Assembly: GCA_963821525.1 (NCBI GenBank)
Contig: CAWGED010000019.1
Coordinates: 1,046,096 to 1,110,095, forward strand
Length of the DNA stretch: 64,000 nt
Direction of reading: 5' to 3'
Source: an uncultured Gemmatimonadales bacterium
Lineage (GTDB): Bacteria > Gemmatimonadota > Gemmatimonadetes > Gemmatimonadales > GWC2-71-9
Each line of letters starts with the position of its first letter. Position 1 is the stretch's first letter. The notes under the pieces are model-generated. The model saw nothing but the letters and a program-made list of their open reading frames with translations, ran no database searches and was not told where the DNA came from. Made by a program: the position numbers and the translations under genes. Shown here piece after piece: positions 16,739-20,221 of this stretch.

Positions 16739-17716
16739 TCACCAGCTCGTCCCTACCCTCATAATCAAATCGATCCCCGGTCCGCTGGGGTAGAGATCTT
16801 CGGTCAATCCGATCCTCCAATCCCGCCCACCCGACGTGCGGTAGATCCAGCCGAAATCCAAGTCGAGTTCCTCCCGCTCAAGCGCGGTGGCCTCGGCGTC
16901 GTCGTACTGGGGAGAGGCCCAGTAAAGGTTGGCGTAGAGTGACTGCTTTCCCCAGAACCGGTAACGCAGGCCGGAGGTAAGGGCGATAAAGCTCTGATTC
17001 TGAATCTGCTTCAGCGGACCATGGCGGGGAGTGTAGCCCAATCCAAGCTCGCCCTCATAGGTAAGCCGAGGGGTAATCTGCGCGCGAACTGTGGTAAGGA
17101 GGCTCGCCGACACGACACCGCGGCCATATCCGTCCGCCGCCGTCGATGTCGGGAGAGTCACCGACAGGACCGATTGGACCTTGGGACTAAAGCGGTGACC
17201 GGCCCCGATTCGGAGGTCGTTCAGGTGGAAGTTCGAGCTGGAGTATTCGACCCGAGTTCCGTCGGGATAGCGGTAGTGATAGTCGAACTCGTTCTCGGGT
17301 CTCCCTTCCCGCTCCGGAAAACTGATTCCGAAGAGATCGTGATACCAATTCAGGAACCCGTCCAGTCCGCCGGCAAAAACCCCACCGACTGACACATCGG
17401 CCAGGAGGAAATCATAGGGCCCGAGATCCTTCGCGATGCCCAGGCTGAACCGGTAGCTCTCGGCATCGAGCAGAAACGAAGTGTCGGTCGAGAAGCCGAA
17501 GGCGAGTTCTGTCATGCTCGCGTAGTCGAGCCCGACCGCGAGGCGCCACCCGGCTCGTGGCTCTACAAAGGGCTGGAAGTAGATCCCCGAACGGGACTCA
17601 ACGACCGGGTTGTTGGGATGGTATTCGGGAAGGCCCTGGGCCGCGGCTGGCTCGAGGACGAATCCGAGCAGAGTTAAGAAGACGCCAAGGCCGGCGAACC
17701 CGGCCTCACGCCTCAT
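16739..17716 (-). CDS. DUF3187-like outer-membrane beta-barrel protein
   Basis: Signal peptide; 'LLDAE', 'GGLDGFLNWYHDLFG..FPER..RP.N', 'EDL', terminal W. Confidence 0.7.
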   Translation of the reverse strand: MRREAGFAGLGVFLTLLGFVLEPAAAQGLPEYHPNNPVVESRSGIYFQPFVEPRAGWRLAVGLDYASMTELAFGFSTDTSFLLDAESYRFSLGIAKDLGPYDFLLADVSVGGVFAGGLDGFLNWYHDLFGISFPEREGRPENEFDYHYRYPDGTRVEYSSSNFHLNDLRIGAGHRFSPKVQSVLSVTLPTSTAADGYGRGVVSASLLTTVRAQITPRLTYEGELGLGYTPRHGPLKQIQNQSFIALTSGLRYRFWGKQSLYANLYWASPQYDDAEATALEREELDLDFGWIYRTSGGRDWRIGLTEDLYPSGPGIDLIMRVGTSW

Positions 17717-18263
17717 CCAGTGATCTCCAGAGGTACCAGGCGGCGTGAGTGCGAACCGGTCGAAAACGCTCACCGAGCTTTTGGAGAGAGCGTGGGCTTC
17801 GAATCCGGTACAGGTTGAGAGCCGCCCGCTGGATCCCGCCGTCTCCGACGGGCCAGACATCCAGGCGGTTCAAGGAGAAGATCAGGAACATTTCCGCGGT
17901 CCAGGCGCCGATTCCTTTCACCGAAGTCAGGCGTTCCACCACCTCGGCATCGGGCAGTGTTTCGATCCCGTCCAGGCCGCCCGCCGCAGTGAAGCGGGCC
18001 AGCTCACGCAAGTAGACTGTCTTGGCGCGAGAAAGACCGGCCGCTCGAAGGGTTCTCACGTTGGCCTTGGCCAGCCGCTCCGGCTCGACCGGAATCCGAT
18101 CGCGGAGGCGATTCATGATCGCCTCGGCCGCACGGCCGGAGATCTGCTGGGAGATGATGGCATCCGCCAGCGATTCAAACGCCGGCTGTTGTGAAAGCCG
18201 TACGGGTCCATGGCGCTGGCAGAGCCCGGCCATAATGGGACAACTCAAGAGAACGTCACTCAT
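17706..18263 (-). CDS. DNA-3-methyladenine glycosylase II (AlkA/HhH-GPD family)
   Basis: 'IISQQIS', 'GLSRAK', HhH 'VKGIGAWTAEMFL', 'PVGD', 'WYLW'. Confidence 0.9.
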   Translation of the reverse strand: MSDVLLSCPIMAGLCQRHGPVRLSQQPAFESLADAIISQQISGRAAEAIMNRLRDRIPVEPERLAKANVRTLRAAGLSRAKTVYLRELARFTAAGGLDGIETLPDAEVVERLTSVKGIGAWTAEMFLIFSLNRLDVWPVGDGGIQRAALNLYRIRSPRSLQKLGERFRPVRTHAAWYLWRSLDEA

Positions 18264-18330
18264 CGTCGCTCAAGGGTAAACCGGCCCGGTAAGCTAAATG
18301 TGCCGGGGCGTGAGGTACACCGGCGCGCTC

Positions 18331-18360
18331 TTGACACCTTCGGCGAGCGGGGAGTAGACT
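18331..18360 (+). promoter_or_regulatory. Sigma70-type promoter
   Basis: TTGACA (18331-36), 18-nt spacer, TAGACT (18355-60). Confidence 0.75.
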
Positions 18361-18365
18361 GGGTC

Positions 18366-18446
18366 ATGATCGGTCACCTTGCGTTCTTCGGCTTTACCGG
18401 CACCGGCGCGGCGCGAGTCGCGTTCGGCGGGGTAAGCGCACGCTAG
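18366..18446 (+). CDS. Phe-rich attenuator leader peptide MIGHLAFFGFTGTGAARVAFGGVSAR (PheL-like)
   Basis: 26-codon ORF with Phe at codons 7, 8, 10, 20, between the promoter and a terminator upstream of prephenate dehydratase. Confidence 0.8.
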   Translation: MIGHLAFFGFTGTGAARVAFGGVSAR

Positions 18447-18470
18447 GCTGACCTGACCGGACCCCTCGAC

Positions 18471-18505
18471 GCCCCGCCGGCAATCCGGCGGGGCTTTTCG
18501 TTTTT
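18471..18505 (+). terminator. Attenuator terminator
   Basis: Perfect 10-bp stem GCCCCGCCGG-caat-CCGGCGGGGC + TTTTCGTTTTT; competing antiterminator CGGCGGGG at 18425-18432. Confidence 0.9.
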
Positions 18506-18518
18506 ACCGGAGAGAACG

Positions 18519-20221
18519 ATGCGCGTTGCGATCCAGGGCACTCGTGGTTCATTCAGCGAAGCTGCAGCCCGCCAGCAATGGGCCGATGCGGAAGTCGTCG
18601 CCTGCCGCGAAGTGGGAGACGTGGTCAAGGCAGTCCGGGAAGGCCGGGCCGACACCGGATGTCTGGCCATCGAGAATTCGCTGGTCGGCTCGATCACTCC
18701 GACGTATGACCTGCTGCAAGAGGCTTTCGGCGACAGCAAGCTCTATCTGAGCCGGGAGATTCTGCTGCCGGTTCACCACGCGATACTCGGGGTCCGCGAT
18801 GGGAGCCTGGCTCAGATCAGGCGCGTGCTGTCTCACCCGGTCGCCCTGGGCCAGTGCAGATCATGGCTCAGCCAGCACCTCCCCGATGCGGAACTGGTGA
18901 GTTCCTGGGACACAGCCGGCAGTGCAGAGATCGTGGGGCGGGAGAACGATCCCGCTCAAGCGGCGATCTGCGCCGCGCATGCGAGCGACGCCTATGGGCT
19001 CAAGGTGTTCGAAGACCGGATCGAAGACGACCCGACCAACCAGACCAGATTTCTCACTTTCGGCAGCGAACGTCCTCCTACCAGCAACACCGTGCCGCAA
19101 AAGACTTCGCTCATCGTGTGGCTCGATCACCGGCCGGGGATGCTGGCCGCGGCACTCCAGGCCTTCGCCGCACGCGGGGTCAACCTGACATCCCTCCAAT
19201 CCCGGCCGGAGCGATCGGCTCCCTGGACCTATCGTTTCTACTTCGATGTGGAAGGCGCGACGGATGATCCGCGACTGGCCGAAGCCCTCGAAGTCTATCG
19301 AGGCGCTGGCGGCGCGCATCGTGATCCTCGGCACCTACCAGGCGTGGCAGCATGAGGGGAAGACTGCCTCACCGGTGGTGATGGCCCCGCCCCAGCAACG
19401 CCCGAAGCCCAACGTGCCTCTCTTCGACCGGGCGCAGCGCTCGGAAGACACCGTGGTGAGGGTCGGCAGCGTGGAGATCGGATCCGGCCGCCCGGTAATC
19501 ATTGCAGGTCCTTGTTCGGTCGAGAGTGCCGAGATGATTCTCGAGACAGCCAAGGCGGTTGCTTCCGCCGGGGCCGATCTTCTGCGCGGCGGCGCGTTCA
19601 AGCCTCGCACCTCACCATACGACTTTCAGGGACTGGGAACCAAGGGACTCAAGTTCCTCGCTGAGGCGCGGGAACAGACCGGCCTCCCGATCGTTACCGA
19701 AGTGATGAGCTGGGAGGAAGTGCCGCTGGTCGCGCGCTACGCGGACATGCTGCAGATCGGCGCCCGGAACATGCAGAACTTCGCGCTGTTGCGAGCGGCG
19801 GGCAGGAGCGGCCGGCCGATTCTGCTCAAACGAAACGGTGGCGCCACGATCGAGGAGTGGCTCCACGCGGCCGAGTACGTGTTGTCTCACGGCAATGACC
19901 AGGTGGTGCTCTGCGAGCGCGGAATCCGAACCTTCGAGCGGGCTACCCGGCATACCCTCGACCTGAACGCGGTGGCTCTGGTGCGGGAGCGGACCCACTT
20001 GCCGGTCATCGCCGATCCGAGCCATGCGGCGGGGATGCGGTCTATCGTACCCATCGCTTGCCCTGGCGGCTTTGGCTGCGGGCGCTCACGGTGTGATCGT
20101 CGAAGTCCACCCCGATCCGGACCACGCGCTGAGCGACGGCGCCCAGAGCCTGGACCTGACCACGTTTGCTCGATTGGCTGAGAAGATTCGCAGCGGAGAG
20201 CCGCGAACGGCGGGGCTCTGA
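18519..20221 (+). CDS. Apparent fusion: prephenate dehydratase(+ACT) - DAHP synthase type I-beta; indels near 19295 and 20060
   Basis: PDT 'ENSLVGS', 'SHPVALGQC', 'NQTRF', ACT 'LTSLQSRP'; PDT end 'ILGTY' in the same frame as DAHPS 'IAGPCSVES', 'FKPRTSPY', 'GARNMQN', 'DPSH'; 'EVHPDP..ALSDG' in third frame. Confidence 0.8.

Follow-up and report, generated by a model that had tools for sequence, protein, structure and literature searches.

Ribosome-mediated attenuation through leader peptides is a class of mechanism with decades of history, and Corynebacterium provides leaderless examples, including the aroR leader of C. glutamicum; the locus described here is therefore a clean extension of a familiar principle and not a surprise. 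The pheL-pheA system combines a short ORF carrying a run of Phe codons with alternative hairpins, an intrinsic terminator and a prephenate dehydratase (PDT) gene, as outlined in PMC3082878. In C. glutamicum, a leader containing Phe-Tyr-Phe (aroR) precedes a DAHP synthase operon and responds to phenylalanine, according to the accounts of it in PMC11802643 and PMC4046766. The closest layout found to that of our locus was C. glutamicum ilvL-ilvBNC, for which the relevant part of PMC11857589 describes a leaderless leader peptide, anti-antiterminator, antiterminator and terminator hairpins, and an antiterminator that begins a short distance past the control codons. The original prediction of a phenylalanine attenuator at our locus stated that no description of the kind was known to its author in a Gemmatimonadota-like host, and no report of amino-acid attenuation or of a leaderless leader peptide was found for the Gemmatimonadota in the literature searched, although supplementary tables and subscription journals may list one. 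The Gemmatimonadota are an abundant and mostly uncultured soil phylum.

Our study analysed a window of 64 000 nucleotides from an uncultured Gemmatimonadales bacterium. The Phe attenuator at 18331–18505 is conserved and is very probably functional. We consider it highly probable, from sequence comparison and RNA folding models, that this is a ribosome-mediated attenuator that senses a shortage of charged tRNA-Phe via a Phe cluster in a 26-codon leader, probably leaderless, and thereby controls read-through into a gene for a PDT-ACT-DAHP synthase fusion. If true, this would extend to the Gemmatimonadota both classical amino-acid attenuation and the leaderless start of leader peptides. The features of the locus are as follows.

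18331..18360, + strand: putative sigma70-type promoter (−35 TTGACA at 18331–18336, 18-nt spacer, −10 TAGACT at 18355–18360)
18366..18446, + strand: leader ORF of 26 codons, MIGHLAFFGFTGTGAARVAFGGVSAR, predicted to be leaderless; the ATG is invariant (50/50)
18384..18395, + strand: control codons TTC TTC GGC TTT (Phe-Phe-Gly-Phe); the Phe cluster is conserved in relatives
18403..18427, + strand: protector (anti-antiterminator, possible pause) hairpin within the ORF, 18403–18412 with 18417–18427, recovered by RNAalifold
18403..18480, + strand: antiterminator predicted by folding, outer helix 18403–18417/18465–18480 and inner helix 18420–18437/18447–18463
18471..18505, + strand: intrinsic terminator, 10-bp stem 18471–18494 and U tract 18495–18505, from folding and conservation
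18509..18512, + strand: Shine–Dalgarno (SD) sequence GGAG for the structural gene, not part of the terminator stem
18519..20221, + strand: prephenate dehydratase-ACT-DAHP synthase (type I-beta) fusion, assigned by Pfam on a relative; the frame in the window is broken near 19291 and 20050

The Gemmatimonadales leader has the same overall parts as E. coli pheL, and the TTT at 18393 is usually followed by ACC (18393–18398), a pair that also occurs in the second Phe run of pheL. It differs from pheL, which is SD-led in the description given by PMC3082878, in having no conserved SD and in its length, which was 24–30 codons in the 48 distinct ORFs of the aligned set compared with 15 in pheL. The predicted antiterminator starts inside the ORF, ~40 nt before the stop codon, rather than just after the stop, and, unlike that of E. 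coli, is built on the 5′ strand of the protector hairpin. Downstream, a PDT-ACT-DAHP synthase fusion takes the place of chorismate mutase-PDT. With C. glutamicum aroR-aroF it shares a Phe-type leader before DAHP synthase, although in a different phylum, and this likeness is drawn from published descriptions of aroR. In comparison with ilvL, which senses branched-chain amino acids, our leader is predicted to sense phenylalanine, and its terminator would share the whole left arm with the antiterminator, whereas the overlap is a 3-nt boundary in ilvL as described in PMC11857589. The Rfam family RF01859 (Phe_leader) gave no match in seven Gemmatimonadales loci at a threshold of 55 bits, with the E. 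coli control scoring 132.3 bits, and a search of the window against Rfam with E up to 5 yielded five weak matches, all far below gathering scores and none of them RF01859. The leader would constitute an RNA family not in Rfam, for which our study provides a 50-sequence alignment.

Conservation was assessed across 51 loci, including the window, in which the start of the PDT was covered, the PDT was at least 60 % identical to that of the window and the upstream 200 nt were non-duplicate. A promoter–ATG pattern located the leader in 47 of these and the other four were found by eye, and both leader and terminator were present in all 50 distinct relatives (PDT ≥60 % identical, upstream DNA present). 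The relatives were titled Gemmatimonadales or Gemmatimonadota, in line with the host type that had been predicted, with one exception titled Thermoanaerobaculia (L067). This locus has a 68 %-identical PDT, carries a related leader and shares the terminator core, consistent with misbinning or transfer, and was omitted from the alignment of 50 sequences, its leader being different. Because the aligned sequences are related (21 clusters at 85 % identity), the counts given here should not be read as independent events. The promoter–ATG leader pattern was not matched at more distant PDT loci of other phyla.

The predicted 26-aa ORF with Phe codons at 18384, 18387, 18393 and 18423 was confirmed in the sequence, and the expectation that Phe codons would be conserved upstream of orthologues was borne out by all 48 distinct ORFs, each of which contains 2–6. 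Phe accounts for 16.6 % of leader codons in frame, compared to 1.2 and 2.1 % in the other two frames and 3.4 % in the long ORFs of the genome itself. The final codon of the cluster is TTT in 46 of the 48 leaders, and TTT is otherwise little used (it makes up 13 % of the genome's Phe codons and ~10 % of the remaining Phe codons in the leaders). Tyr is present in 7 of the 48 leaders ahead of the PDT-first fusion. As a sensor, the cluster at 18384–18395 stood up to comparison, but the codon at 18423 is limited, by eye, to the genus of the window; it is unlikely to be a control codon, both because of this confinement and because a ribosome there would abolish the predicted antiterminator. Phe enrichment in frame, the terminator and the matching enzyme are all conserved in relatives, and the assignment to the phenylalanine leader-peptide attenuators, made from the sequence at the outset, is very likely correct. 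The attenuator reading is further favoured because the amino acid sensed matches the downstream PDT-ACT enzyme.

Both promoter boxes were present as predicted, with the ATG 5 nt past the −10. This was the lone site of its type in the 2 kb scanned, with 0.3 expected. In the 50 aligned sequences the −35 TTGAC columns are 0.98–1.00 identical and the −10 T/A/T columns 0.96–0.98, and the spacer drifts, with columns mostly 0.3–0.7 identical. The distance from −10 to ATG is 5–7 nt in 48 of the 50 leaders, and SD-like words precede only four leaders, compared to 48 of 50 structural genes. The original prediction, which saw no room for an SD, overlooked a GGGAG inside the promoter spacer of the window itself, 11 nt 5′ of the leader ATG. 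The leader ORF probably starts at or beside the first base of the transcript, as was originally suggested, because the −10/ATG spacing and the lack of an SD fit a leaderless start. Among 226 promoter-like sites in the same genome, an ATG occurs 6–9 times per gap of 5–9 nt and ~3 times at other gaps; the leader is probably not the sole promoter-adjacent start in this organism.

A perfect 10-bp terminator with a U tract had been predicted before the structural gene, and is present at 18471–18505. Its stem comprises 10 G-C pairs followed by TTTTCGTTTT and folds at −23 kcal/mol (z = −4.3), a value equalled by none of 200 shuffles. The eight core pairs are retained in 50/50 sequences almost without change. 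This invariance was counted in favour of an attenuator because invariant segments shared by alternative helices have been reported for other attenuators, in the section of PMC1262725 concerned with them. A translational attenuator that sequesters the SD was rejected, since the SD at 18509–18512 lies outside the stem and the terminator is conserved.

When a ribosome was modelled on the Phe cluster, the long antiterminator hairpin was the minimum-energy fold in 50/50 sequences, and its apical loop (18438–18446) carries the stop codon of the leader. The long hairpin beat all 40 codon shuffles in 45/50, and 46/50 have the apex no more than 6 nt from the stop codon. The leading edge of a ribosome lies near +13 from the P site. 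In all 48 distinct ORFs the antiterminator arm begins exactly 10 nt on, counting from the first base of the cluster's last codon, a distance that was counted for the stalling model because it matches this leading edge. The terminator left arm was captured in 50/50 with the ribosome up to one codon past the cluster, in 12/50 at two codons and in 6/50 at three, so that the control region ends where the last Phe codon lies. The geometry of the model is sharp and testable, with 10 nt from the last Phe codon to the antiterminator and a stop codon in the loop.

The helices differ in how far comparison between species supports them. For the inner helix, the native partner was better than a cross-species swap in 18 of 21 clusters (p = 0.003). 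The outer helix shows no two-sided changes in the alignment and is too invariant to covary; its single C-C mismatch moves by one position between two leader types (26 and 18 rows). The protector hairpin has 94.6 % of cells paired and 29 two-sided changes, as high as in none of 500 shuffles, with a large part of this covariation reflecting a single split between the two leader types; its native pairing was better in 14 of 21 clusters, which is not significant. Its lower stem, including the Phe codons, was predicted in 49 of 50 naked RNAs but did not pass the swap test (8 of 21 clusters). RNAalifold, run on the region without the right arm of the terminator, found the protector hairpin and not the long antiterminator, and the region past the stop codon aligns raggedly. 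The covarying stems that had been anticipated were seen for the protector hairpin, but neither candidate outer helix (18403–18417 or 18425–18432 with the terminator arm) covaried by pair counts, and the terminator is nearly invariant. The classical arrangement in which the Phe codons pair with a downstream segment, and a stalled ribosome frees segment 2, was also rejected, as folding predicts it but it failed the swap test.

In the mechanism that we propose, transcription would start at ~18366 and a ribosome would load at the 5′ AUG without an SD. When phenylalanine is short, the ribosome would stall on the cluster and its leading edge would stop immediately before 18403; the post-stop segment 18447–18463 would pair with 18420–18437 and open the protector hairpin, bringing 18403–18417 beside the left arm of the terminator, which it would capture, so that no terminator forms and the gene is transcribed. 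When phenylalanine is ample, the ribosome would pass the hairpin and reach the stop codon in the loop, covering the inner helix; the protector hairpin would re-form behind it, the terminator would form and transcription would stop at ~18500.

The weakest step of this proposal is the last, in which full translation would restore termination. It needs steric or timing effects, because a ribosome at the stop codon leaves 18403–18417 uncovered, and equilibrium folding with a ribosome footprint placed there retains the outer helix in 45/50. The bulk of the ribosome and its coupling to RNA polymerase would have to prevent outer-helix pairing in the off state. The barrier from protector to antiterminator was estimated at 2.9 kcal/mol when free and ~8.4 kcal/mol with the stop region masked, and was higher in 50/50, an estimate in which the L028 row was mis-parsed and masking can only remove paths. 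For untranslated RNA the barrier was 18.6 kcal/mol, compared to 5.5 kcal/mol in the stalled state, which fits termination without translation, as PMC1183508 describes for the trp leader. Crude co-transcriptional models moved in the expected direction in three of five sequences and clearly in two of 14 with other settings, in which pairing around the ribosome was allowed; both co-transcriptional folding models were noisy, with slipped registers, and did not robustly reproduce the switch.

A more specific description is offered tentatively, and is rather less likely to be right than wrong. The element may be an attenuator of relay type. The terminating ribosome would then never touch the antiterminator arm but would sit in the loop of the long hairpin and block strand displacement, and the invariant UUU 10 nt before the arm would set the switch point to the nucleotide. 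Gemmatimonadota families might then reuse this geometry with unrelated sequences, each operon having a sensor to suit it (Phe-only in most cases ahead of the PDT-first fusion, Tyr-containing before DAHP-synthase-first operons).

Other explanations bear on different parts of this reading. That the leader is a chance ORF before an ordinary terminator is extremely improbable. GC-rich DNA commonly contains short ORFs and GC hairpins, and the long antiterminator hairpin alone (−45.1 kcal/mol) has a z of −1.7. Nevertheless, the upstream gene is divergent, leaving no + strand gene for the terminator at 18471–18505 to end, and the frame-specific Phe enrichment and fixed geometry argue in the same direction; chance was excluded because the arrangement is conserved in relatives, and not by single-site statistics. 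We also think it unlikely that the leader starts further upstream and is initiated via an SD or an upstream in-frame start, which would alter only its description as leaderless. The window does contain a 78-aa in-frame ORF from 18210 as well as the spacer GGGAG, and two of the three RNA contigs that cover the leader extend 5′ of 18366, by 29 and 62 nt. These contigs, from four of six RNA runs (X16, 18337–18492; X20, 18364–18641; X15, 18304–18532; no contig over the leader in X18), are unable to show starts, ends or levels; contig ends fix no start, and the transcript of the divergent neighbour or DNA can account for the contigs beginning at 18304 and 18337. Across the alignment, the rarity of SD-like words, the narrow gap after a conserved −10 and an in-frame stop within 20 codons upstream in 30/50 sequences all speak against an upstream start.

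The choice of antiterminator is where our study departs from the original prediction, which paired CGGCGGGG at 18425–18432 with CCCCGCCG at 18472–18479, a classical 2:3 arrangement covered directly by a ribosome near the stop codon. The two segments are indeed exact complements, giving a perfect 8 bp in the window, and over 44 distinct rows 80.7 % of cells are paired, with a median duplex of −16.4 kcal/mol. Such a helix would account for termination at full translation without steric assumptions, and with the ribosome 6–8 codons past the cluster the terminator arm paired with an ORF segment in 15–21 of 50. In the stalled state, however, an antiterminator excluding the terminator formed in 50/50 as expected, but the arm paired with 18403–18417 in every case and with 18425–18432 in none. 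The exact 8-mer is present in only five of 50 leaders, its central pair is broken in 37 of the 44 rows, its duplex is weaker than that of 18403–18417 in 49/50, and the native pairing was better in just 10 of 21 clusters, which is no advantage. It draws on the segment that also forms the inner helix; the two exclude each other, and the inner helix has a native advantage. This pairing is not supported as the main switch and is probably a minor or secondary helix in these models, and that the attenuator works through it appears improbable. A different doubt concerns the signal, which could be general slowing of ribosomes or a TnaC-like arrest of the nascent peptide with the free amino acid, acting on the same translated leader and switching hairpins. 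There is precedent in a similar-looking Streptomyces ilvB leader that was unresponsive to codon changes, as PMC1262725 reports, and the near-fixed TTT-ACC pair is otherwise without explanation. Against this, the leader peptide outside the cluster varies widely or tracks RNA helices, the Phe count itself ranges from 2 to 6, and other Gemmatimonadota leaders retain just the aromatic cluster and the geometry, making such a signal very unlikely compared with charged tRNA-Phe.

PDT was detected in 127 of the 221 genomes sampled across the phylum. A wider survey took 60 of 131 PDT matches, hand-chosen for diversity, and used a detector requiring an ORF with an aromatic cluster and a terminator within 3 kb upstream, for which the background in the window's own genome was 0.005 per 3 kb. 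The detector flagged 20 of the 60 loci and 19 were kept: 11/20 in the window's family, 7/20 in a second family of the order and 1/20 elsewhere. The flagged locus that was dropped (L135) has neither a promoter nor a Phe cluster, and in the remaining loci (41/60 without a kept leader) none was found within 3 kb upstream by this detector. One kept leader (L108) is of the aligned type and the other 18 differ in sequence. All 19 have a promoter-like site just 5′ of the start, by eye, and in models with a ribosome on the cluster, 18 of them show the terminator arm paired to part of the leader ORF. The first gene after the kept leaders encodes DAHP synthase, PDT or a chorismate mutase fusion (15 of the 19 scanned), and the presence of these leaders before aromatic-pathway genes was counted in favour of the attenuator reading. 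Leaders of DAHP-synthase-first operons contained Tyr in 10 of 11 cases by eye (L102–L106, L113, L114, L117, L124, L129 and L138; the gene downstream of L103 was outside the domain scan). Three loci of the second family (L015, L016 and L126) have a GTG-start, Tyr/Phe-rich leader of unrelated sequence with a terminator, ahead of a fusion between PDT and a type I (AroH-like) chorismate mutase.

The regulated gene was characterized in a same-genus relative, in which Pfam placed PDT, ACT and DAHP_synth_1 within one 566-aa ORF. The fusion is a single ORF of 560–597 aa in 42 of 51 distinct loci; five are cut by contig ends and four, the window included, are interrupted. The two frameshifts in the window are likely to be assembly errors, because contigs from DNA runs lack both extra bases: that near 19291 is absent in four of four runs and that near 20050 in the three of three covering it. 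This check used 4 of 18 DNA runs, which hold close relatives that are not provably the same strain. Two few-contig assemblies (G003, locus L004; G004, locus L012) show frameshifts of the fusion at other places, consistent with indel-prone assembly. The fusion joins the first and last committed steps of phenylalanine synthesis, and the single ACT domain between PDT and DAHP synthase could regulate both activities. No chain among solved structures matched both halves of the fusion, and a literature search returned no paper on it. The divergent neighbour is an AlkA-like DNA glycosylase gene (17706–18263, − strand), a homologue of which was present at 51 of the first 88 loci when duplicates are counted.

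A strict scan of the window's own genome for a leaderless ORF followed by a terminator and a gene returned five rows, of which two were the Phe leader and the other three lacked a clear amino-acid cluster. Elsewhere in this genome, outside the window (G000 C19:197646, + strand), a second promoter-adjacent ORF of 24 codons has a middle rich in Ala, Val and Ile. It is accompanied by alternative hairpins and a terminator-like stem and is a candidate second leaderless attenuator; the N-terminus of the ORF downstream resembles what we take to be the glutamate synthase large subunit.
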